64,000 nucleotides of DNA from an uncultured Thermoanaerobaculia bacterium (GCA_964471955.1 CAYYIK010000007.1:2729-66728); one strand, 5' to 3'; numbered from the stretch's first letter, positions 2,121-44,762 are shown. A program made the numbers and translations. Notes: generated by a model not told the origin, from the sequence alone.

Positions 2121-2743
2121 CAGCGTCTCCCCTACGCGCGGAGGCCTCCGGCCCCGCCGCCGACCGGCGGCGGCGCGCGATCCTCGCCGCCGCGTCGCGC
2201 CTCTTCCGCGAGCGCGGCCTGCATGCGACCGGTATGCGCGAGATCGCCGCCGAGCTCGGGATGACGGCCGGAAACCTCTACTACTACTTTCCGTCCAAGC
2301 AGGATCTGCTCGCCTACTGCCAGGAGGCGACGCTCGACGAGCTGCAGGCGCTCGCCGTAGAGGTCGCAGCGAGCCGGGACGCCGCCGGCGAGCAGCTCGC
2401 CCGGCTGCTGCGTGGGCACGTCCGGATCCTCAACGAGTCGACGCCGGGCTCGCTCGCCCACCTCGAGCAGAACGAGGTCCCGGAGGCGCGGCGCGCCTCC
2501 CTGCTCGCCCGGCGCAAGCGATACGAAGAGGTCTTCCGGCGGCTGATCGAGGCGGGGATCCGCACGGGCGAGTTCCGGCCCGTCGATCCCGGCCTCGTCG
2601 CGCTGGCGATGCTGGGAGCGGTCAACTGGACCGTCCGCTGGTTTCAGGCCGAAGGCCGCAAGAGCGCCGACGAGGTGGGGCGGGAGTTCGCCGACCTGCT
2701 GGTCGCCGGCCTGAGGAACCTTCCGACGAGGAGCGACGCGTGA
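2111..2743 (+). CDS. TetR/AcrR family transcriptional regulator
   Basis: 210 aa. The N-terminal HTH signature is RRRAILAAASRLFRERGLHATGMREIAAELGMTAGNLYYYFPSKQDLL. Confidence 0.9.
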   Translation: MVQTASPLRAEASGPAADRRRRAILAAASRLFRERGLHATGMREIAAELGMTAGNLYYYFPSKQDLLAYCQEATLDELQALAVEVAASRDAAGEQLARLLRGHVRILNESTPGSLAHLEQNEVPEARRASLLARRKRYEEVFRRLIEAGIRTGEFRPVDPGLVALAMLGAVNWTVRWFQAEGRKSADEVGREFADLLVAGLRNLPTRSDA

Positions 2744-3282
2744 GCGCAGACTGCGAGATGGTGGTGCGCCGGCTGAAGGTCAACGGCGAGGAGCGGACGG
2801 TCGCCTTCCCCGTCCATCACACGCTGCTCGAGGTGCTGCGCGAAGAGCTCGGTCTGCCCGGCACCAAGCACGGCTGCGAACTCGGCGAGTGCGGCACCTG
2901 CACGGTACTGGTCGACGGGGCCCCGATCCTCTCCTGCCTCGCCCTGGCCGACGAGATGGAGGGTCGGGAGATCGAGACGGTCGAAGGGTTGGCGCGGGGC
3001 GGCGAGCTGCATCCGCTGCAGCGCACCTTCGCGGACCTCGGCGCCGCGCAGTGCGGCTACTGCACGCCGGGGATCCTGATGACCGCCAGGGCGCTGCTCG
3101 CCGAGAACGCCACACCGACGCGCCCGGAGATCCGCACGGCCCTGGCCGGCAACCTCTGCCGCTGTACGGGCTACCAGAAGATCCTCGAAGCGGTCGAAGG
3201 CGCTGCGGCGCTCGAGCGCGGAGAACCCTGGGAGCCGACCTCCGAGGCACTGCGCGGCTCCCCCGAGCCGGGGGAACAGTGA
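2740..3282 (+). CDS. Xanthine dehydrogenase family [2Fe-2S]-binding small subunit (CoxS/HcrC-like)
   Basis: This is the C-terminal part of the ORF-track frame 2044..3282. The GTG at 2740 overlaps the tetR stop (GTGA); an alternative ATG lies at 2758. Motifs: CELGECGTC (plant-type cluster), CGYCTPG and CRCTGY (second cluster). Confidence 0.9.
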   Translation: MSADCEMVVRRLKVNGEERTVAFPVHHTLLEVLREELGLPGTKHGCELGECGTCTVLVDGAPILSCLALADEMEGREIETVEGLARGGELHPLQRTFADLGAAQCGYCTPGILMTARALLAENATPTRPEIRTALAGNLCRCTGYQKILEAVEGAAALERGEPWEPTSEALRGSPEPGEQ

Positions 3283-3289
3283 CAATTTT

Positions 3290-3326
3290 AATTACCTCTG
3301 ACTGAATTTACGGGGTCAGGGGCGGG
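3290..3326. repeat. Copy 2 of the 36-37 bp direct repeat
   Basis: AATTACCTCTGACTGAATTT (3290-3309), then A, CGGGG, TC, AGGGGCGGG. It fills the 33-bp convergent gap between the small-subunit stop (3282) and the stop of the minus-strand small ORF (3316), and runs into the end of that ORF. Confidence 0.8.
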
Positions 3327-3510
3327 CGCCGAGGAGGCGGGCGGGCAGGAAGAGGACGGCTTTGAGCAGGGCGAAGACCCCTTCGACGGCGACGCCGAGC
3401 AGGCGGAAGGGGAGCAGCAGCAGCCAGACGATCGGGTAGAGGACGAGCGCCAGCAGGGCGAGCGGCCAGCAGAGGACGAAGAGCAGGAGCCAGAGCAGAA
3501 ACGTGAACAT
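3316..3510 (-). CDS. Small hydrophobic membrane protein (64 aa; two predicted helices)
   Basis: Protein MFTFLLWLLLFVLCWPLALLALVLYPIVWLLLLPFRLLGVAVEGVFALLKAVLFLPARLLGARP. The ATG at 3510 is preceded by GGTGGAGGGGG (Shine-Dalgarno, SD). Codon third positions are GC-rich as in neighbouring genes. It lies on the opposite strand between the small and large molybdoenzyme subunit genes. Confidence 0.6.
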   Translation of the reverse strand: MFTFLLWLLLFVLCWPLALLALVLYPIVWLLLLPFRLLGVAVEGVFALLKAVLFLPARLLGARP

Positions 3511-3587: not shown

Positions 3588-6155
3588 GTGGCTGATCCCG
3601 ATCGCGACGTCCCCGCAGCCGCGCCGAACGCGCGTCCGCTGCGCGTCGTCGGCACCCCCTTCCGCCGGGTCGACGGCTTCGCCAAGGTGACCGGACAGAC
3701 CCGCTACGCCGACGACCTGGACTTTCCGCGCACGGCGCACGTCAAGCTCGTGCGTTCGACGATCCCCCACGGGCGCATCCGCTCCATCGACCTCGAGGAG
3801 GCCGCGAGGCTCCCCGGCGTCCTCGGTTTTCTCACCGGACGCGACCTGCCGACCACCTTCGGCATCCTGCCGGTGTCACAGGACGAGCACCCGCTGGCGC
3901 TCGACCGGGTACGCCACGTCGGCGACCCGGTGGTCGCCGTCGCCGCGACGAGCGAGGACGCCGCCCACGCGGCGGCGCTGGCGGTGAAGGTCGACTACGA
4001 GCCGCTGCCGACCATCGCCACGGTCGAAGAGGCGATCGCGACGCCCGAGCCGCAGCTGCACGAGTACGCCGACCAGGGGAATCTGCACAAGGTCGTGTCG
4101 ATGGAGTTCGGCGACGTCGAGGCCGGCTTCGCCGCCGCCGATCGGGTTTTCGAGGACGTCTTCTTCTACGACGGAAACACCCATCTGCCGCTCGAGCAGC
4201 ACGCCACGGTGGCGCTGCCCGAGGGGGACGACCGGATCACCGTCTGGTCGTCGACCCAGACGCCGCACTACCTGCATCGCGCCCTGACCCGCGTGCTCGG
4301 CCTGCCGGCGTCGCGCATCCGCGTCGTCGCGACCCCCAACGGCGGCGGCTTCGGCGGCAAGAGCGACCCGTTCGGCCACGAGATCGTCTGCGCCGCGATG
4401 GCGCGCAAGCTCGGCCGTCCGGCGCGCATCGCGCTCACCCGCGAGGAGGTCTTCTACTGCCATCGCGGCCGCCACCCGGTGCTGATGCGCCTCAGGACGG
4501 GCGTCTCGAAGGACGGGGCGCTCACCGCGCAGACCCTGCAGACGACCCTCGACGGCGGCGCCTACGGCAGCTACGGCGTCGCGTCGACCTACTACACCGG
4601 GGCGCTCGAGACGGTCACCTACCGGCTGCCGAACTACAAGTTCGAGTCGATCCGCGCCTTCACCAACAAGCCGGCCTGCGGCCCCAAGCGCGGCCACGGC
4701 ACCCCCCAGCCACGCTTCGGCTTCGAGGTGCAGCTCGACAAGATCGCCGTGGCGACCGGGCGCAATCCGGCCGACCTGCGGCTCGCCGTCGTCGAGCAAC
4801 CGGAGACCATCACCGCCAACTGGCTCAAGCTCGGCACCATCGAGCTGGCGCGCTGCATCGAGGCGGTGGTCGCCGGGTCGGGCTACCGCGAGCGCTGGGG
4901 CAGGCTGCCGCGCGGGCGCGGCCTCGGACTCGCCTGCGGCTCCTATCTTTGCGGCGCCGGCCTGCCGATCTACTGGAACCACATGCCGCAGTCGGGCGTG
5001 GCGATCCACGTCGACCGCGGCGGCGGCGTCGCGGTCTTCTGCGGCGAGACCGAGATCGGCCAGGGGTCGGACTCGGTGCTCGCCGCAGTGGTGGCCGAAG
5101 TCCTGGGCGTCGAGATCGCCGACCTGCGGCTCCAGGTCGCCGACACCGCCTTCACCCCGGTCGACCTCGGCAGCTACTCTTCGCGCGTCACCCTGATGAT
5201 GGGGCAGGCGGCGCGCGACGCTGCGGAGAAGGTGCGCGCCACGATCGCCGAGGCGGTCGCGCGGCAGCTCGAGGTCGCCCCCGACCGGCTCGTCTTCGCC
5301 GACCGCCGCGTCTTCGACGCCGCCGATCCCGGGCGCGGCCTCACCTGGGAGGAGGCGGTGATCGCCGCCGAGGCCCGCTTCGGAACGATCGCCACGGCCG
5401 GCAGCTACACCCCTCCCCGCTCGCCCGGCAAGTACCGCGGCGCCGGCGTCGGCCCCTCCCCCACCTACTCCTACTCCGCCGCCGTCGTCGAGGTCGAGGT
5501 CGACGAGCACACCGGCATCTGGCGCCCGCTGCACGTCTGGGTGGCGCACGACATCGGCCGCGCCCTCAACCCGGCACTGGTCATGGGTCAGGTCGAGGGG
5601 GGCGTCTACATGGGTCTCGGCGAAGCGATGATGGAGGAGTCTGCCTTCCGCCGCCTGCCCAGGGCGCGCTCGCAGGCGCTGGTGCACAAGTTCCCCAGCC
5701 TCCTCGAGTACAAGAGCCTGACCTTCGAGGAGATGCCGCCGGTGACCACCTACCTGATCGAAGAGCCCGATCCGGCCGGCCCCTTCGGCGCCAAGGAGGT
5801 CGGCCAGGGGCCGCTGCTCCCCCTGCCGCCCGCCTGCGCCAACGCCATCTTCGACGCCGTCGGCGTGCGCGTCGACCAGGTGCCGATCCACCCGCACATG
5901 GTGCTCAAGGCGCTCGAAGCGAAGGCGAAGGGGAGCGAGCCCCGCTACGGCCCGGCGACCTTCCCCGAGGTCGACTTCGGCTTCACCCTGCAGGTGCCGA
6001 CTCCCTGGGAGGGGGGCGACGGCAGGGCGTCGAACGAAGAGGAGTTCAAAGCGGCCACCGGGCGCAAGTCCCGCGCCGGGACGATGACCGAGCGCAGCGA
6101 AGCGCTGCGCTCGGGAAGCGTCGCAGCCCTGACGACGAAGCTGAAGGAATCGTGA
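3588..6155 (+). CDS. Xanthine dehydrogenase family molybdopterin-binding large subunit (CoxL/HcrA-like)
   Basis: 855 aa, GTG start. The N-terminus RVVGTPFRRVDGFAKVTGQTRYADD matches the a/b-hammerhead signature. It has the NGGGFGGK motif and FGAKEVGQGP near the C-terminus. A C-terminal tail of roughly 85 aa (KGSEPRYGPATFPEVDFGF...KLKES) extends beyond the usual family end. Confidence 0.92.
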   Translation: MADPDRDVPAAAPNARPLRVVGTPFRRVDGFAKVTGQTRYADDLDFPRTAHVKLVRSTIPHGRIRSIDLEEAARLPGVLGFLTGRDLPTTFGILPVSQDEHPLALDRVRHVGDPVVAVAATSEDAAHAAALAVKVDYEPLPTIATVEEAIATPEPQLHEYADQGNLHKVVSMEFGDVEAGFAAADRVFEDVFFYDGNTHLPLEQHATVALPEGDDRITVWSSTQTPHYLHRALTRVLGLPASRIRVVATPNGGGFGGKSDPFGHEIVCAAMARKLGRPARIALTREEVFYCHRGRHPVLMRLRTGVSKDGALTAQTLQTTLDGGAYGSYGVASTYYTGALETVTYRLPNYKFESIRAFTNKPACGPKRGHGTPQPRFGFEVQLDKIAVATGRNPADLRLAVVEQPETITANWLKLGTIELARCIEAVVAGSGYRERWGRLPRGRGLGLACGSYLCGAGLPIYWNHMPQSGVAIHVDRGGGVAVFCGETEIGQGSDSVLAAVVAEVLGVEIADLRLQVADTAFTPVDLGSYSSRVTLMMGQAARDAAEKVRATIAEAVARQLEVAPDRLVFADRRVFDAADPGRGLTWEEAVIAAEARFGTIATAGSYTPPRSPGKYRGAGVGPSPTYSYSAAVVEVEVDEHTGIWRPLHVWVAHDIGRALNPALVMGQVEGGVYMGLGEAMMEESAFRRLPRARSQALVHKFPSLLEYKSLTFEEMPPVTTYLIEEPDPAGPFGAKEVGQGPLLPLPPACANAIFDAVGVRVDQVPIHPHMVLKALEAKAKGSEPRYGPATFPEVDFGFTLQVPTPWEGGDGRASNEEEFKAATGRKSRAGTMTERSEALRSGSVAALTTKLKES

Positions 6156-6170
6156 AGAGATCGTGAAGAG
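6149..6170. repeat. 11-bp perfect tandem duplication spanning the large-subunit stop codon
   Basis: ATCGTGAAGAG (6149-6159) is repeated at 6160-6170. The first copy contains the TGA stop at 6153-6155. Confidence 0.85.
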
Positions 6171-6330
6171 GAAAGAAGCAAAGGCCTTTTTGTTCAAGAC
6201 AAAGGCAAAGGCAGAAGCTTCCATAGAAGGGAAAAGAGGGGACTGGGGCGTGGGCTGGGCGGGTGAGTCGATTGCGGCGGGCCAGAAGCCGGGTGAAGCC
6301 TGGATTCCTTTCTCCGATGCCGAGGGCGAG

Positions 6331-6493
6331 GGGGCCGGGAAAGTTTCCCGGCAGGGAAGCTCGAAGGCCCCATCACCTGAGCGGTGGGCCGGCACTCCCG
6401 GTTCAGATCGGGGCCTGAGCGCAGGAGCGCACCCGCCGTCGTTGCCGGCACTCGTGCGCGCCGGTTCCCGGCCGGGGAACTTTCCCGGCCCCC
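6331..6493. repeat. Inverted-repeat pair (about 22 nt) inside the 405-bp repeat-rich spacer 6156-6560
   Basis: GGGGCCGGGAAAGTTTCCCGGC (6331-6352) matches the reverse complement of 6470-6493, GGGGGCCGGGAAAGTTCCCCGGCC. Each arm is itself nearly palindromic (CCGGGAAAGTTTCCCGG). Between them, GCCGGCACTC...CCGGTTC occurs twice, at about 6388 and about 6444. Confidence 0.75.
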
Positions 6494-6560
6494 TCGCTTC
6501 CACCTCCCGCTGAACGAGGACGAACATGTCCAGAACCAGGAAGTCCGAGAGGAAGCACCG

Positions 6561-7571
6561 ATGCTGAGAATGCCGGGGTTCCGGCTGCTGCGCCCCGAGA
6601 GTCTGGCGGAGGCGGCGGCCATGCTGGCGGGCGAGGGCGAGGGGGCGCGGCTGGTCGCCGGCGGGACCGACCTCTTCCCCAACCTCAAGCGCCGCCACCA
6701 GAAGGCGACGGCCGTCATCTCGCTCGCCCGCGCCGCGCGACGCGATCCGGCCCTCGCCGCGGTGTCGGTCGGGCCCGGTCCCGTCGGCGACTTGCGGCTC
6801 GGTCCGATGGCCCGCCTGTCGGCCATCGAGCGCGATCCGCGCGTGCGGGCCGGCTGGCCGGCGCTCGCCCGGGCGGTGGCGTCGATCTCCTCGCCGGTGC
6901 TGCGCAACATGGGGACGATCGGCGGCAACGTCTGCCTCGACACCCGCTGCACCTACTACAACCAGAACGAGGAGTGGCGGCGGTCGATCTCCTACTGCAT
7001 GAAGGCCGAGGGGAAGGTCTGCTGGGTCGCGCCCTCGTCGCCGCGCTGCTGGGCGGTGCAGAGCGCCGACTCGGTGCCGATGCTCATCGCGCTCGGTGCC
7101 CGCGTCCGTCTTCTCTCGGCCGCCGGCGAGCGCGAAGTGCCACTCGAGGCGCTCTACCGCGACGACGGGATGGACTACCTGACCCTGAGCCCCGGCGAGA
7201 TCGTCACCGGCATCGCGGTCCCCGCCGCATCCGCGGCCTCCCGGCTGCGCACCGCCTTCTTCAAGCTGCGCCGCCGCGGCTCGATCGACTTCGGCGTCCT
7301 GTCGGTCGCCGTCGCGCTGCGGCTCGAGGCGGATGTCGTCGCCGATGCGAAGATCGTCCTCGGCTCGATCGCGTCGTTCCCCTCCCCCGCCGCTGACGCC
7401 GCCGCCGAGCTCGTCGGCAAGCCGCTCACCGAGGAGACGATCCGCGCCGCCGCCGCGAAAACACGCACGGCCGCGACGCCGATGGACAACACCGACCTCG
7501 ACCCGCGCTGGCGCGGCCAGGTGACGCCGGTGTACGTCGAGCGCACCCTGCGCGAGGCGGCCGGTCTCTGA
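6561..7571 (+). CDS. Xanthine dehydrogenase family FAD-binding subunit with extra Cys-rich loop (HcrB-like)
   Basis: ATG at 6561 within the ORF-track frame 6384..7571; 336 aa. FAD motif LVAGGTDLFPNLK. A Cys-rich insertion C125-x4-C130-x15-C146-x7-C154-x8-C163 is absent from ordinary CoxM/XdhB-type subunits. Confidence 0.9.
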   Translation: MLRMPGFRLLRPESLAEAAAMLAGEGEGARLVAGGTDLFPNLKRRHQKATAVISLARAARRDPALAAVSVGPGPVGDLRLGPMARLSAIERDPRVRAGWPALARAVASISSPVLRNMGTIGGNVCLDTRCTYYNQNEEWRRSISYCMKAEGKVCWVAPSSPRCWAVQSADSVPMLIALGARVRLLSAAGEREVPLEALYRDDGMDYLTLSPGEIVTGIAVPAASAASRLRTAFFKLRRRGSIDFGVLSVAVALRLEADVVADAKIVLGSIASFPSPAADAAAELVGKPLTEETIRAAAAKTRTAATPMDNTDLDPRWRGQVTPVYVERTLREAAGL

Positions 7572-7590: not shown

Positions 7591-9219
7591 TCAATTCGCC
7601 GCCACCTCCGACCAGCGCAGCAGGTCGCCACGCTCGAAGCCGTCGCGGAAGAGACCCAGCGCGTAGAAGACGTTCACGGCGCCGGCGTTCTCGACCGCTC
7701 CGGCGTCCTCGTCCGGCGCGCCGACGGCGAGATCTTCGAACCCGTTGCCGTCGAAGTCGCCGGCGGCGAGGGCGGTGCCGAGCCGGTCCCCCGCCTCGGG
7801 AGTGCCGGGAGCCGTGCCGGCCTGGTTGAGCTCTACGTGGAACAGCGGCGCGCCCGCGGCCCGGCCGGTGAACGCGAAGGCGGAACCGGCGGCGTTCTGC
7901 CCGGCGACGTCGACGCCGTATCCGCCGACGACGAGGTCCGCCGTGGGGCCGGCATCGAATCTCCCGGCCGCCACCGCGGATCCGAAGTGATCGAAGCCGG
8001 CCGGCGAGCTTCCGGTGTCGGTTCGCTGGATCTTCCAGGCGAAGGTCGGCTCGAGGCCGCCGCCGGCGCCGCGCAGGACGTGGACCGATCCGGCGCTCGG
8101 CACGATGGCGGGCGCCTCGATGTCCTCGTAGAGCGAGCCCACCGCGAGGTCGTCCCGGCCGTCGCCGTTGAAATCCGCCGCCACCAGAGAGAAGCCGAAC
8201 CAGTCCTCGGCCTCCACCTCGGCCGGCACCGCCTGGCTCTGGGTGACGAAGCGCGCGCGGCTCGCACTCAGGCCGAGGCCGGTTCCGAAGATCACGGACA
8301 CGGCGCCGGCGTCCTCGAGGACGCCGATGTCCTCGCGCGGCGAAGCCACCGCCAGGTCGTCGTGCCCGTCGCCATCGAAGTCGCCCGCCGCGAGCCGCCA
8401 ACCGAAGCCGTCACCGGCCTCCTCGATCGACAGGTTGAGGTCCGCCTGGACCCAGATCTGGTCCGCCACCGGCGCGAAGTCGGGCGACAGGCCCGACGGC
8501 GACCCGTAGAGGACGTTGACGGCCCCCGAGTCGGCGACCGCACCGACGTCCTCGCCCGGTACGCCGATGGCAAGGTCGACGAAAGCGTCGCCGTTGAAGT
8601 TGCCCGCCGCCAGGGAGCGGCCGAATCCGTCCTCCGACTCGGCGACTCCCGCGACGCCCCCGGCGCCCTGGTGCCAGAGCTGGCTGCCGGCGGCGGTGAT
8701 CCCGGAGAGACCGCCGTGGAGCACCAGCACGGCGCCCCCGCTGTACGCCGTGCCGCCGGAACCGGGGACGTTGCGCCCGGGGATCCCCACCGCGAGGTCG
8801 TCGAAGCCGTCGTCGTCGAAGTCTCCGGCCACCAGCGCCGTGCCGGCCAGGTCCTCCCACTCGCTCGGACCGTGGGCGGTCCAGTCGATCGCCCACGTCT
8901 CCGACCCGCTCGGGTCGAGACCCGAGGCCAGCCCGTAGACGACCGTGACCTGCCCCCCCATCGAAGCCCCGGCCAGGACGGTCTCGCCCGGGGCCGCGAT
9001 CGCCAGGTCGTCGAAGCCGTCGCCGTTGAAGTCTCCGACCGCGAGCTCCCGCCCGAACAGATCGCCGGCCTCCGCGCCGTCCGGAACGCCACCCGCCCCC
9101 TGTTCCAGAATCTGTGCCCCGGCCAGCCCGAGCTGCGCGTGAATCGACGTGGAAAAGGCGAGCGCGCCCGCCAGCGAGAGGACGGCCGCCGGCCGCCCGA
9201 TCGATCGATCGAAACCCAT
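7591..9219 (-). CDS. Secreted FG-GAP/integrin-alpha-like repeat protein carrying the C-terminal GFExGD-W tag
   Basis: The start at ATG 9219 is preceded by AAGGGGGA (SD); the track ORF extends to 9315. Signal peptide MGFDRSIGRPAAVLSLAGALAFSTSIHAQ. There are at least 7 repeats of the type GDFNGDGFDDLAIAAPGE. The protein ends LFRDGFERGDLLRWSEVAAN. Confidence 0.88.
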   Translation of the reverse strand: MGFDRSIGRPAAVLSLAGALAFSTSIHAQLGLAGAQILEQGAGGVPDGAEAGDLFGRELAVGDFNGDGFDDLAIAAPGETVLAGASMGGQVTVVYGLASGLDPSGSETWAIDWTAHGPSEWEDLAGTALVAGDFDDDGFDDLAVGIPGRNVPGSGGTAYSGGAVLVLHGGLSGITAAGSQLWHQGAGGVAGVAESEDGFGRSLAAGNFNGDAFVDLAIGVPGEDVGAVADSGAVNVLYGSPSGLSPDFAPVADQIWVQADLNLSIEEAGDGFGWRLAAGDFDGDGHDDLAVASPREDIGVLEDAGAVSVIFGTGLGLSASRARFVTQSQAVPAEVEAEDWFGFSLVAADFNGDGRDDLAVGSLYEDIEAPAIVPSAGSVHVLRGAGGGLEPTFAWKIQRTDTGSSPAGFDHFGSAVAAGRFDAGPTADLVVGGYGVDVAGQNAAGSAFAFTGRAAGAPLFHVELNQAGTAPGTPEAGDRLGTALAAGDFDGNGFEDLAVGAPDEDAGAVENAGAVNVFYALGLFRDGFERGDLLRWSEVAAN

Positions 9220-9332
9220 GAGTTCCCCCTTTCGCCGCGACGGGTCGTGCCCGTCCCTCGCTTGCATCGCGAAAAGGGGAGAGACTGCGACAGTGCCATT
9301 CGGGGCGGCCTCCACGGCGCCGGACAGAGCGC

Positions 9333-36455: not shown

Positions 36456-37520
36456 GTGCACACCCTCGAATTGCTCGAACGGCTGGCGCGCGCCGGCGAG
36501 TTCGAGTTCGTCGGCCTCGCCCACCGCGAACCGCGACCCGCCGCCCGCCTGCGCGCCGCCGGCGTCGCGATCGAGTGGCAGCGCGCGCCGCTCGGCGTCG
36601 TCTGGCAGCAGCTCGTGCTGCCGCGCCGGCTCGCGGCGGGTGACCTCGATCTCTTCTGGTCGCCGCTGCAGACGCTCCCCGGACGGCTGCCGATTCCGGC
36701 GATCGCGACGATCCACGACCTCGCGGTGCTGCTCTACCCGGAGACGCTGCCGCTGCGGGTGCGCTGGAGCCAGATCCCCTTCCTCGCCACGACGGTCGAC
36801 CGGGCGACGCGCCTGATCGCGGTGTCGCGCGCGACCGCGGACGACCTGGTCGCCGCCTTCCCCGCCGCCGCCGGCAAGGTCGAGGTCATCGCCAACGGCG
36901 TCGACGCCGCCTGGCGCCCCGGCGAGGCCCCGGCGATCGCCGCCACCCGGGAGGCCCTGGGGGCGCCGGGTGGCTACCTGCTCTCGGTCGGCACGCTGGA
37001 GCCGCGCAAGAACCTCGACCTGCTGCTCGACGCCTGGCTGCTGCTGCGCGACGAGCTCGGCGAGGCGACGCCGCCGTTGCTGCTCTCCGGCTCCCCGGGC
37101 TGGAAGAGCCGCGCCCTCGACGCCCGGCTCGCCGCGCTCGCGCCGCTCGGCGTGCGCCGGCTCGGCCGGCTGCCGCTGGCCGACCTGCGGGCCGCCGTGC
37201 AGGCGGCCACCGTCTTCGTCTACCCGTCGCTCTACGAGGGGTTCGGCCTGCCGGTGCTCGAAGCGATGGCCTGCGCCGTACCGGTCGTCGTCTCGCGCAC
37301 CCCCGCTCTGCTGGAGGTCACGGGAGACGCCGGCTGCGCGATCGAACCGGACGACCCGGCCGGGCTCGCCGCCGAGCTGGCCGCTCTGCTCGCCGATCCG
37401 CGGCGCGCCGCCGCCTTCGGCCAGCGGGGCCGCGAGCGCTCGCTGGACTTGTCCTGGGACGCGGCGGCGCAGCGGCTCGGCGAGCTCTTCCGGGCGGTTC
37501 TCGCGGAGGGCCGGGCGTGA
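36456..37520 (+). CDS. Glycosyltransferase (GT4-like); the true N-terminus probably lies upstream (see finding)
   Basis: 354-aa ORF from GTG 36456, with YPSLYEGFGLPVLEAM (E-x7-E). The in-frame upstream peptide PRIAVDLRAVVAEPTGIG looks like the missing first beta-strand and Gly loop, but no ATG, GTG or TTG is available there. Confidence 0.8.
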   Translation: MHTLELLERLARAGEFEFVGLAHREPRPAARLRAAGVAIEWQRAPLGVVWQQLVLPRRLAAGDLDLFWSPLQTLPGRLPIPAIATIHDLAVLLYPETLPLRVRWSQIPFLATTVDRATRLIAVSRATADDLVAAFPAAAGKVEVIANGVDAAWRPGEAPAIAATREALGAPGGYLLSVGTLEPRKNLDLLLDAWLLLRDELGEATPPLLLSGSPGWKSRALDARLAALAPLGVRRLGRLPLADLRAAVQAATVFVYPSLYEGFGLPVLEAMACAVPVVVSRTPALLEVTGDAGCAIEPDDPAGLAAELAALLADPRRAAAFGQRGRERSLDLSWDAAAQRLGELFRAVLAEGRA

Positions 37521-42694: not shown

Positions 42695-42715
42695 GCCGGC
42701 GTCCTCTCCTTGGGT

Positions 42716-43074
42716 CTTCACCGGTTCGAGTGGGTGATCCCTTGTCGGGGCGGGACGGCTGGGCGGAACGACGCGTCCGGTTCAAGAGTGCGGACACAAG
42801 CTTCCAAAGAATGGAATGACGGCTCCCGGTGGAGTCTGGATCGGGCGTGGCGGGCTCGAAGCGACCGGAGTCCACCCCCGCCGTCTGGCCCCACCGGTCG
42901 CTGGCCGACCCCTACTCTGGCTTTTCCCCTATCTGGAAGCTTGTGTCCCCGGGCGTACACCTTGCGTCGGCATCGACCAGTTCGAGTTTCGGTGCCTGTC
43001 CCCGAGATAGGAGTCTTGGTGCCTGTCCCCGAAATACCGCCTCGCGGTGGCGCCACCCACTCGAACCGGGGAAG
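42716..43074. mobile_element. MITE-like non-autonomous element or structured non-coding element (359 bp)
   Basis: 21-bp terminal inverted repeats CTTCACCGGTTCGAGTGGGTG (42716-42736) and CACCCACTCGAACCGGGGAAG (43054-43074), with 1 mismatch. It is flanked by an identical 13-bp direct repeat GCGTCCTCTCCTT (42699-42711 and 43074-43086). A nested 15-bp perfect inverted repeat is GGACACAAGCTTCCA (42792-42806) with TGGAAGCTTGTGTCC (42934-42948). GC is lower than the surroundings, and there is no credible ORF. Confidence 0.55.
42991..43036. repeat. Two-copy direct repeat (27-bp period) inside the MITE-like element
   Basis: GGTGCCTGTCCCCGAGATA (42991-43009) and GGTGCCTGTCCCCGAAATA (43018-43036). Confidence 0.8.
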
Positions 43075-43085
43075 CGTCCTCTCCT

Positions 43086-44762
43086 TCAGCTTTCGACGAG
43101 AGATACAGCCGGCTCGGACCCGCGACCCCGGCGCAGCGCCAGGACGGCGAGCAGCGCCGCCAGGCCGAGCAGCACGGCGGCCGAGAGGCCATTCCAGAAC
43201 CCGACCTCGCCGAGGGCGGCGCCGAGGTTCGCCCACGCCAGCGTGGCGAGCGCCCAGATGGTGATCGTGGCTACGAAGAGCAGCGGCAGCAGGGTGAACA
43301 GATAGGGGCGGCGCCGGCGGCGCAGCCAGATGGTGAGCACCAGCAGGGTGAGCGCCGCCAGCAGCTGGTTGCTGGCGCCGAACAGGGTCCAGAACTTCGT
43401 CCAGGCCCCCTGCCCGCCGGCGAGCACGAACCAGACCGCCGGCGCCACCGTGGCCAGGGTGGCGATCGCCGCGCCGGTCCTGCCGCGCCAGCCCGACAGC
43501 TCCTGCAGCAGATAGCGGCCGAGCCGCGTCGAGACGTCGAGGGTGTCGAAGACGAACGTCGAGAAGGCCATGGCCCCGAACGTCACCGCGAAGGCGAGGT
43601 GCTGCTCCCCCACGACGAGGGCGAGGAAGCGCCCGATGCCGTTGCCGTAGATCGTCCCGGGCGACAGTCCGGCGATCGCCTCGGGGGGCGCGATCATGAT
43701 CGTCACCAGGGCGATCAGCGCGACGAACCCTTCCGCCAGCATGGCGCCGAAGCCCACCGGCTGACAGTCGCTCTCGCGCGCGATCTGCTTCGAGGTCGTC
43801 CCCGAACAGACCAGGCCGTGAAAGCCCGAGCAGGCACCGCACGCGATGGTGACGAAGAGGAAGGGAAAGAGTCCCCCCGTCACGCCGCCGGCGTTCCAGG
43901 CACGGAAGAAGGGCTGCTCGATCGACCAGCCGCCCAGCAGCACGCCGATCACGCCGGTGGCGAGCGCGGTGTAGAGGACGAAGCCACCCAGGTAGCCGCG
44001 CGGCTGCAGCAGCGCCCAGACCGGCACGACCGAGCCGAGGGCGCAGTAGACGAGGATCAGCACCGCCCAGGTCGCGTGATCGAACTGCAGCCAGGTCGAC
44101 ATCCGGGTGCCGGCCCAGCAGGCGGCGAAGGTGGCGGGGACGAAGATCGCGGTGACCAGCCAGAGCGGCGGCGCCAGGAAACGCTGCACCAGGCCGAGCA
44201 GCAGCGACAGCCCGAGGTAGAGCACCGCCGCCGCGGCCACCGCGCCGCCGGCGTGGAAGCTCGTTCCGCCCTCGCGCAGCTCTTCGGTGCCGGCGACGAA
44301 GCTGCCCGCCGTGATGTCGGCGAAGGCGACGATCACGTAGACGAGGGCGATCCAGATGAACAGCATCATCGCCCGCCCGGCGAGCGGTCCGAGCTCGTGG
44401 CGGGTGATCTCGGCGATCGAGTCGCCGCCGTGGCGCACCGAGACGGCGAGCGCCGAGAAGTCGTGCACCGCGCCGATGAAGACGACGCCGAATGCGATCC
44501 AGGCGAGGCAGGGGCCCCAGCCGAACGCCTGGCAGGCGAGGATCGGCCCGGCGATCGGTCCGGCCGCGGCGATCGCCGAGAAGTGCTGCCCGAACAGGTA
44601 GAAGCGACGGGTGGGAACGAAGTCGACGCCGTCGCGTCGCGACACCGCGGGCGTGGCGCGGCCGTCGTCGAGGCGGAACTGGCGTGCCACCCAGCCGCCG
44701 TAGAAGTGGTAGGCGGCGGCCAGCAGGCCGAGCAGCGCGACGCTGAGCAGTGTGAGGGACAC
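43086..44762 (-). CDS. cstA: Carbon starvation protein A (CstA family peptide/pyruvate transporter)
   Basis: 558 aa, GTG start. The conserved N-terminus is YHFYGGWVARQF...FVPTRRFYLFGQHFSAIAAAGPIAGPILA, and the protein is polytopic. Confidence 0.92.
   Translation of the reverse strand: MSLTLLSVALLGLLAAAYHFYGGWVARQFRLDDGRATPAVSRRDGVDFVPTRRFYLFGQHFSAIAAAGPIAGPILACQAFGWGPCLAWIAFGVVFIGAVHDFSALAVSVRHGGDSIAEITRHELGPLAGRAMMLFIWIALVYVIVAFADITAGSFVAGTEELREGGTSFHAGGAVAAAAVLYLGLSLLLGLVQRFLAPPLWLVTAIFVPATFAACWAGTRMSTWLQFDHATWAVLILVYCALGSVVPVWALLQPRGYLGGFVLYTALATGVIGVLLGGWSIEQPFFRAWNAGGVTGGLFPFLFVTIACGACSGFHGLVCSGTTSKQIARESDCQPVGFGAMLAEGFVALIALVTIMIAPPEAIAGLSPGTIYGNGIGRFLALVVGEQHLAFAVTFGAMAFSTFVFDTLDVSTRLGRYLLQELSGWRGRTGAAIATLATVAPAVWFVLAGGQGAWTKFWTLFGASNQLLAALTLLVLTIWLRRRRRPYLFTLLPLLFVATITIWALATLAWANLGAALGEVGFWNGLSAAVLLGLAALLAVLALRRGRGSEPAVSLVES

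Follow-up and report, generated by a model that had tools for sequence, protein, structure and literature searches.

A conserved hairpin in the spacer between hcrA and hcrB

The window analysed here is a stretch of 64,000 nucleotides (64 kb) from an uncultured Thermoanaerobaculia bacterium (GCA_964471955.1, CAYYIK010000007.1:2729-66728). It carries the genes hcrA and hcrB for two subunits of a putative molybdenum enzyme, which are separated by a spacer of 405 nt. A first-pass annotation, made from the sequence alone, had placed this spacer at 6156-6560 and proposed that it represents either a structured RNA or a decayed mobile element. The limits are correct, as the hcrA stop codon ends at 6155 and the hcrB ATG stands at 6561. 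Both proposals found backing, each in a different part of the spacer: the structured option in a 172-nt hairpin, and the mobile-element option in an A/G-rich repeat at the 5' end. None of the outcomes that the annotation had named as speaking against it was encountered. The following features of the locus are relevant for the sections below.

3588-6155, + strand: hcrA-like gene, molybdopterin-binding large subunit (Pfam Ald_Xan_dh_C, MoCoBD_1, MoCoBD_2)
6156-6560, + strand: hcrA-hcrB spacer, 405 nt
6192-6320, + strand: A/G-rich 5' part, decayed copy of a second repeat family ("X")
6236-6313: hypervariable segment, directly 5' of the hairpin
6326-6358, + strand: left arm of the hairpin, 33 nt, holding the 17-mer CCGGGAAAGTTTCCCGG at 6335-6351
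6359-6420, + strand: left inner hairpin of the consensus fold, with helix 2 (6359-6374 paired with 6406-6420) and helix 3 (6378-6388 with 6395-6404)
6424-6462, + strand: right inner hairpin, with helix 4 (6424-6432 with 6454-6462) and helix 5 (6435-6438 with 6446-6449)
6465-6497, + strand: right arm of the hairpin, 33 nt, holding the 17-mer CCGGGGAACTTTCCCGG at 6472-6488
6498-6560, + strand: hcrB leader, 63 nt, unstructured, with the Shine-Dalgarno-like sequence GAGAGGAAG at 6547-6555
6561-7571, + strand: hcrB-like gene, FAD-binding subunit with a Cys-rich insertion (Pfam FAD_binding_5, CO_deh_flav_C)

The core element is an imperfect palindrome at 6326-6497, the best inverted repeat in the entire window. 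Its arms are 94% complementary, and a 26-mer taken from the arm matched the two arms only, with 0 matches in 100 shuffles. The two near-palindromic 17-mers noticed in the first pass are indeed present, one in each arm. CCGGGAAAGTTTCCCGG is a perfect 8-1-8 palindrome, and the centres of the two 17-mers lie 137 bp, or about 13 helical turns, apart. The claim that their extended contexts are reverse complements of each other also held, but the proposed extent of 22-24 nt was too short: the arms span 33 nt with 106 nt between them. Within this interval, GCCGGCACTC occurs at 6388 and 6444 and is followed each time by CCGGTTC and then CGGGG, so that the repeated series of motifs described earlier was recovered. 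Aligned with its own reverse complement, the 172-nt element showed 70% identity.

Folded as RNA, the segment 6320-6503 reached -125 kcal/mol, compared with -91 ± 4 kcal/mol for shuffled sequences (z = -8.0); the opposite strand gave z = -7.4. Neither the 5' part at 6156-6325 (z = 0.2) nor the 3' leader at 6490-6600 (z = 0.5) folded better than shuffles, indicating that the structure is confined to the palindrome. In the consensus fold, a closing stem of 33 bp (28 contiguous pairs and 5 more) encloses the two inner hairpins in a three-way junction. In length, the closing stem would suffice for an RNase III processing stem, a functional class defined by about 20 bp or more of near-perfect double-stranded RNA in a transcript together with observed cleavage.

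We scanned 5900-6800 for transcription signals and found no sigma-70-like promoter and no intrinsic terminator above chance expectation; the single weak terminator site, at 6289-6303, corresponds to that expectation. The right arm is followed by CTTCCACCTCCCG, without a T run, and the hairpin therefore does not have the form of an intrinsic (Rho-independent) terminator. A sigma-54 motif of the -24/-12 type, considered at two GGCAC sites, was checked by eye and discarded on account of its spacing. The search against covariance models suggested with the first-pass annotation led to no known family: in Rfam 15, the region matched no family up to E = 10, and the whole window gave 0 matches at gathering thresholds. 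The top hit, the plant hairpin MIR1437 with 32.7 bits against a threshold of 168, is a generic match to a long hairpin.

Conservation of the hairpin and turnover of its flanks

In about 60 of about 75 relatives in which both genes were located, hcrA and hcrB overlap (ATGA) or lie at most 23 nt apart; L016 is an example. This comparison marks the 405-nt spacer as a derived, clade-specific feature. Long spacers elsewhere are sporadic and mutually unrelated, and that of the window showed no homology to those of L012, L013, L093, L106, L109, L111, and L143 (all z < 3). The hcrA-hcrB junction has been struck repeatedly by unrelated insertions in other lineages. It holds a 471-nt spacer with different palindromic repeats, hairpins of the GCTGGGACGGGGACA type, in L013 (5530-6000), an inserted beta-lactamase-fold gene in L012 (4514-6000), and a small ORF between GGGAGAGGGGCCGGGG palindromes, also given as CTCCCCTCTCCCACCGGGAGAGGGGCCGGGG, in L111 (2459-3000); L106 and L143 have further long spacers. 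L093, whose hcrB is 85% identical to that of the window, has an unrelated spacer of 82 nt without a hairpin.

The hairpin was found at the hcrA-hcrB junction only, in four lineages of one clade, which answers the question of conservation left by the first pass. Lineage W comprises the window, L001, and L002; lineage A comprises L036 (MAG_60) and L183-L190, with the partial contigs L003-L011 and L189; lineage B is L193, and lineage C is L194 (GCA_045862895.1). Identity of the element was 96-99% between the closest lineages and 83% between the most distant ones. In the comparison of W with A, identity is 96.5% for the element, 96.8% for the leader, and 79.0% for the 5' part of the spacer (element against 5' part, Fisher p = 5e-7). 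The corresponding values are 94.9% for hcrA (third codon positions 89.8%) and 86.0% for hcrB (third positions 75.1%). Lineages A and B are very close, with an identity at third codon positions of 97.2% for hcrA and 91.9% for hcrB; here the element reaches 99% and the spacer at 6159-6313 77%, and the leader is unalignable, having been replaced by unrelated sequence. Between W and C, the element retains 83% identity, and both flanks have fallen to 41-50%, the level of random alignment; third positions are 67-71% identical and hcrB 80% identical in amino acids.

The conserved block, 6314-6499, ends a few bases from the outer end of the right arm and extends about 12 nt beyond the left arm. The hcrB start codon follows the element at a distance of 46-71 nt in every lineage, and the interval between the hcrA stop and the element varies from 170 to 333 nt. 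The left arm (6326-6358) is 100% identical in W, A, and B. Conservation is spread evenly over the 172 nt and is not focused on the two 17-mers. The junction and loop sequences are invariant as well; CCGGCAC, for example, is kept in both inner hairpins.

The segment directly 5' of the hairpin, 6236-6313, behaves differently from the element: all three W/A/B pairs show 68-70% identity without indels, and the A/B value of 68% stands against 92-97% at third codon positions. Both flanks of the hairpin (6236-6313 and 6498-6560; compared in the equivalents of L184 and L193) diverge far faster than synonymous sites between A and B. The spacer of lineage B is a mosaic, because its first 77 nt are W-like. 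Directed mutagenesis as in diversity-generating retroelements was considered for the hypervariable flank and rejected, as both its transition bias and its count of tri-allelic sites are in line with independent substitutions of the ordinary sort; no reverse transcriptase was found nearby among the ~34 scanned ORFs of the window. An unlikely further possibility is that the hairpin itself drives the unusually fast turnover of its flanks (68-77% identity against 92-97% at synonymous sites), for example as a hotspot of recombination or template switching.

Short-read contigs break off inside these hairpin elements in at least 16 cases, drawn from many different samples (L002-L011, L014, L015, L189, L191, L192, L195, L196). 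Their window-equivalent end positions include 6361, 6374, 6404, 6407, 6410, and 6471. We take the short-read assemblies to have used a k-mer size of 31, which exceeds the length of the exact inverted repeat, and loss of coverage at the GC-rich hairpin therefore seems more likely than an artefact of the assembly graph.

Covariation of the paired arms

Among W, A, and B there are 7 variable sites and 0 compensatory changes; two one-sided changes keep a G-U pair on the + strand. The substitution 6477 G->A makes the stem perfect in A and B, and 6437 C->T keeps a wobble pair in helix 5. When lineage C was added, five pairs proved to be changed on both sides and still paired, four of them in the closing stem and one in the inner helix 4 (A-U to C-G); one base pair was lost from both arms. 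Five such pairs were reached in only 2 of 500 shuffles, and with the partner shifted by 1-3 columns there were 0-1. The check for covariation that had been proposed for the spacer was thus positive. Across all four lineages, helix 2 shows next to no variation.

The 17-mers are self-palindromic in W, A, and B. In lineage C this property is lost and the pairing of arm with arm is kept, which indicates that the long stem has been retained rather than two separate palindromic sites; the same comparison speaks for the long stem and against a pair of separate sites for protein binding. An attempt to call the strand from G-U versus A-C pairs was abandoned since the lineages contradict each other. On this comparative evidence, covariation shows that the symmetry has been maintained; that the element functions as an RNA is not implied by it.

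Copy number and class membership

The element is single-copy in all sequence searched, save for a tandem paralogue in one relative. No further copy was detected in the window with the arm 26-mer at up to 3 mismatches, with blastn at permissive settings, with a degenerate pattern for the family, or with two covariance models. Weak covariance-model matches at 37520, 55111, and 7551 are coding sequence or a plain GC hairpin. Related loci totalling 513 kb contained no copy elsewhere. In 185,579 species-representative genomes, the arm pattern occurred at 76 loci, one of which is the orthologous locus in a Thermoanaerobaculia genome; the other 75 of the 76, isolated single palindromes in unrelated taxa, are taken to be chance matches. 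Searches of viral contigs, plasmids, and phages gave isolated palindromes or nothing. A comparison of the ~34 window ORFs with Pfam revealed no transposase, RAYT (Y1 transposase), or recombinase.

The paralogue, which bears out the earlier suggestion to look for other copies, lies in lineage C. There the junction holds a 549-nt spacer (L194 3452-4000) with three strong tandem hairpins (whole-spacer fold z = -8.7):

L194 3496-3551: hairpin H0, unrelated to the element; holds GGGACTGTCCC twice
L194 3573-3720: E1, paralogue; arms related to those of the window element, three-way architecture shared, interior different; 33 bits
L194 3783-3954: E2, orthologue of the window element; 107-136 bits

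Because lineage C carries the paralogue E1, the family has been duplicated at least once. Duplication is repeat-like behaviour, yet on present evidence there is no dispersed multi-copy family.

Like MITEs (miniature inverted-repeat transposable elements), the element has terminal inverted repeats around a short non-coding segment (less than about 500 bp), with arms of 33 nt in a total of 172 nt. A target-site duplication is missing: the flanks (...GATGCCGAGG / element / TTCCACCTCC...) have no common direct repeat, and none was seen around E1 or E2 in L194. Repetitive extragenic palindromic (REP) sequences form REPINs when two inverted REP palindromes jointly make a hairpin. The window element has this arrangement, and the within-arm palindrome is lost in lineage C. 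Neither the dispersed genome copies of a MITE nor the high extragenic copy number of REPINs and REPs was found in the sequence searched. The element is best filed as REPIN/MITE-like in its build, outside these families by copy number, and fixed at one locus.

The remainder of the spacer

The A/G-rich composition described for the 5' part was confirmed, with a GC skew of +0.22 and an AT skew of +0.30 over 6001-6400. The sequence AAGCTTCCAWAGAAKGGAA occurs at 6215, at 42798, and, on the - strand, at 42924, that is, 3 times in the window compared with 0 expected by chance. Local alignment of the 5' part with 42780-42960 gave z = 5.6-6.7. The 5' part is thus a diverged copy of the inverted-repeat element at 42781-42948, and it evolves at or above the neutral rate. 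The latter element belongs to a second intergenic region of ~400 nt (42695-43100), which lies between convergent genes and contains nested inverted repeats:

42716-42753 and 43037-43074: outer arms, 38 nt, 76% complementary
42792-42816 and 42924-42948: inner arms, 25 nt, 84% complementary; they bound the inner element, of which the 5' part of the hcr spacer is a paralogue

A 12-nt direct repeat, CGTCCTCTCCTT, at 42700 and 43075 resembles a target-site duplication, and GGTGCCTGTCCCCGA[GA]ATA occurs twice within 42695-43100.

The hcrB leader is 97% identical between W and A, but in B and C an unrelated sequence stands in its place. At 6526-6567 there is a 13-codon mini-ORF, MSRTRKSERKHRC, which has its own GAGGA ribosome-binding site and a stop codon overlapping the hcrB start (ATGcTGA). 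Lineage A retains the mini-ORF, a single synonymous change apart. We rejected it as a leader peptide because the entire leader is replaced in B and C; it is probably fortuitous. An N-terminal extension of hcrB from a GTG at 6384 was likewise rejected, as every homologue begins with MLR... and a Shine-Dalgarno sequence of its own serves the start at 6561.

The first-pass annotation had named a 116-aa frame (6163-6513, + strand) as the only ORF of the spacer; in fact, several others overlap it on both strands. The frame is open in the window and in lineage A, but frames of this length are common on both strands of DNA with 72% G+C. As a gene it was rejected: it has no homologue among 5.8 billion proteins and no Pfam family, its substitutions fall evenly on the three codon positions (14/9/13), and no gene caller annotated it in any related contig.

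The hcr gene cluster and its surroundings

The G+C content of the window is ~72%, and its proteins match metagenome-assembled genomes of the Thermoanaerobaculia (Acidobacteriota); one record names the genus-level group JACTMI01. The cluster encodes a molybdenum enzyme resembling 4-hydroxybenzoyl-CoA reductase. In addition to hcrA and hcrB it includes:

~2108-2743: TetR-family gene, member of the cluster
2740-3282: hcrC, 2Fe-2S subunit
3288-3509, - strand: small conserved ORF between hcrC and hcrA

The closest solved structure to HcrB is 1rm6_B, the beta subunit of 4-hydroxybenzoyl-CoA reductase (E = 7e-52). For all three subunits the corresponding NCBIfam models were the top match, yet each score stayed below the curated cut-off (767 bits against 995 for hcrA with TIGR03194; 253 bits for hcrB with TIGR03195), so the substrate of the enzyme is not certain.

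The ORF at 3288-3509 encodes a hydrophobic protein of 73 aa without a Pfam family. Its nucleotide identity to lineage A is 98-99%, and L013, L016, and L194 have a called gene of 64 aa in the corresponding position. Its place on the opposite strand between hcrC and hcrA implies that these two genes do not form one simple transcription unit. At the start of the TetR-family gene lies a perfect 8-2-8 palindrome, TTTGAACCGTGGTTCAAA (2103-2120), which is a plausible candidate for the TetR operator and differs from the palindromes of the spacer. Across the hcrA stop codon, an 11-nt tandem duplication (ATCGTGAAGAG twice, 6149-6170) is present that is missing in lineages A and B. Downstream of hcrB, an FG-GAP repeat gene (7591-9315, - strand) occurs in the window, L193, and L194 and is absent from lineage A (L183-L188), where an M16 peptidase gene directly follows hcrB. 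The presence and absence of the FG-GAP gene is further evidence for recombination mosaics in this region.

A possible role of the hairpin in the hcrA-hcrB message

Our preferred explanation, to which we assign a probability of roughly 40%, is that a REPIN/MITE-like hairpin is transcribed together with hcrA and hcrB and acts on the processing or stability of the mRNA. A clade-specific insertion would have separated genes that are translationally coupled in most relatives, and the palindromic element would have become fixed, as a single copy, 46-71 nt upstream of the hcrB start. It is presumably transcribed by read-through within the hcrA-hcrB mRNA, since no promoter or terminator is detectable, hcrB has a Shine-Dalgarno-like sequence of its own, and hcrB is needed together with hcrA. 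The element would then act at the RNA level, from the + strand, as a 33-bp duplex within the message. RNase III classically takes double helices this long as its substrates, and exonucleases are held up by them. The duplex may serve as a processing site for RNase III, as an exonuclease barrier, or as both, so that the hcrA and hcrB halves of the message would be uncoupled and the stability of each set by the hairpin. HcrB would be translated from its own Shine-Dalgarno sequence.

Several observations weigh against this explanation. The unpaired parts of the element are conserved as much as the paired parts, which points to recognition of the sequence itself by some factor and not to pairing alone. 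Helix 3 is broken in lineage C and is therefore unsupported. The W, A, and B elements fold 1-5 kcal/mol better on the + strand, whereas the two copies of lineage C fold 4-7 kcal/mol better on the - strand; because the lineages disagree in this respect, the symmetry could be selected in DNA. The element is dispensable, given that L093, a relative as close as lineage C, has no hairpin. Finally, even in the absence of selection, template-switch correction of quasi-palindromes can produce compensatory changes where inverted repeats lie close together.

Stable hairpins in transcribed operon spacers are known from the REP/BIME and ERIC-type palindromes of enterobacteria and from the puf stem-loop of Rhodobacter. 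They shield the upstream mRNA from 3' exonucleases or serve as processing sites and thereby set the expression of neighbouring cistrons. These hairpins have stems of 10-15 bp or belong to large families, unlike the window element with its 33-bp stem and 172-nt three-way junction at a single locus, for which an effect on mRNA is proposed only. The best-documented parallel for the proposed mechanism is the Correia element (CREE/NEMIS) of Neisseria, a non-coding element of ~100-157 bp with inverted repeats of ~26 bp that often lies between or 5' of genes and is co-transcribed with them (PMC2649163). In the mRNA, Correia inverted repeats form hairpins that are bound or cleaved by RNase III, altering transcript stability (PMC2649163). 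The window element is likewise short and non-coding with inverted-repeat arms, and the RNase III mechanism of CREE is the one proposed here. CREE occur in Neisseria only, at 100-250 copies per genome, can create promoters, and can carry a site for IHF (PMC2649163). The window element, in contrast, is single-copy in the searched sequence, stems from an acidobacterium, and shows no promoter; it is presumably unrelated in sequence as well, no direct comparison with the 26-bp Correia repeat and its conserved core having been made. REPINs are extragenic REP doublets that form hairpins, are vertically inherited and clustered, and are mobilised by RAYTs (PMC3116915). The 17-nt palindrome in each arm, the 137-bp distance between the units, and the tandem cluster of lineage C recall them. 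However, REPINs are defined by hundreds of copies and a cognate RAYT, neither of which was found for the window element in the sequence searched, and the within-arm palindrome is not conserved in lineage C.

The main rival explanation is a selfish or neutral palindrome of the REPIN/MITE type that has no role for the host and occupies a tolerant intergenic site, its arms being kept alike by template-switch correction or refreshed from copies. We consider this possible though somewhat doubtful. It would account for an architecture equal to that of a REP doublet hairpin (PMC3116915), for the repeat-like clustering of a second copy and a third, unrelated hairpin in the spacer of lineage C, and for the unrelated hairpin repeats or inserted genes at the junctions of other lineages. 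The 5' part of the spacer, itself a decayed copy of another repeat, the missing strand asymmetry, and the lack of the element in L093 fit as well. What a selfish repeat does not readily explain is that no other copy was found in the 64-kb window or in the 513 kb of related loci and that, apart from presumed chance matches, the arm pattern hit only the orthologous locus among the 185,579 species representatives, with none in viral contigs, plasmids, and phages. Nor was a target-site duplication found, or a transposase, RAYT, or recombinase among the ~34 window ORFs, and 83% identity at one site beside randomised flanks (W versus C) is hard to explain without selection at that site. A DNA-level regulatory region of hcrB, in which the 17-bp palindromes serve as operators of a dimeric regulator, with looping and with or without an internal promoter, is in our view clearly improbable. 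The arms of lineage C are not palindromic singly and still complement each other, conservation is even over the 172 nt instead of being centred on two sites, no sigma-70-like promoter was found at 5900-6800, the motif is nowhere else in the window, and the likely TetR operator TTTGAACCGTGGTTCAAA at 2103-2120 has a different sequence. An operator pair would nonetheless agree with the perfect 8-1-8 palindrome CCGGGAAAGTTTCCCGG, with a spacing of 137 bp or ~13 helical turns, with the conservation of primary sequence beyond pairing, with the fixed position relative to the hcrB start, and with the TetR-family gene in the cluster.

There is a slim chance that the element is a small RNA standing on its own or, in the 5' untranslated region of hcrB, a cis-regulatory RNA with a three-way junction that responds to a ligand or protein. 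The fold is common to the orthologues and the paralogue E1, the junction and loop sequences such as CCGGCAC are invariant, and the position 46-71 nt upstream of hcrB is kept in every lineage. Yet Rfam gave no match, conservation does not extend to helix 3, the element is not bracketed by a promoter or terminator, and the leader containing the ribosome-binding site that would be regulated is replaced in B and C. A closing stem of 33 bp is, moreover, far longer than the stems of known riboswitches. Very improbable is an inverton, with the inverted repeats as recombination sites around a flippable segment of 106 bp. Such a segment is indeed bounded by 33-bp inverted repeats, and many short-read contigs end inside the element; however, all spanning assemblies (at least 11 contigs from different samples: window, L001, L036, L183-L188, L190, L193, and L194) have one orientation, the contigs end at the centre and at various inner positions rather than at the inner edges of the arms, and the scanned window ORFs include no recombinase. 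The notion that the spacer encodes the 116-aa protein is effectively refuted by the results given above.

The hairpin acting on the hcrA-hcrB mRNA also admits a wider reading, which we regard as unlikely. The element would then be a locus-specific, vertically inherited cis-acting RNA module, a three-way junction with invariant loop motifs and a closing stem of the RNase III type, that replaced translational coupling and controls the output of hcrB, and it would represent a new regulatory RNA family of one Thermoanaerobaculia clade. Most likely, the element is of an ordinary kind and not a new system.

Implications

In practical terms, the locus is a warning that GC-rich hairpins break short-read assemblies reproducibly at one place and attract spurious ORFs. 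If the selfish-repeat explanation is true, the element would belong to an ordinary family of palindromic repeats whose one notable trait is its low copy number. If, on the other hand, the hairpin acts at the RNA level, the hcrA-hcrB junction would be a clean natural case of an operon that loses coupling through an insertion and retains the inserted piece as a post-transcriptional control. To our knowledge, hardly any RNA biology has been characterised in the Acidobacteriota. From the comparative series, the order of events can be followed, from coupled genes through a short spacer and a spacer with one hairpin to a spacer with three hairpins.

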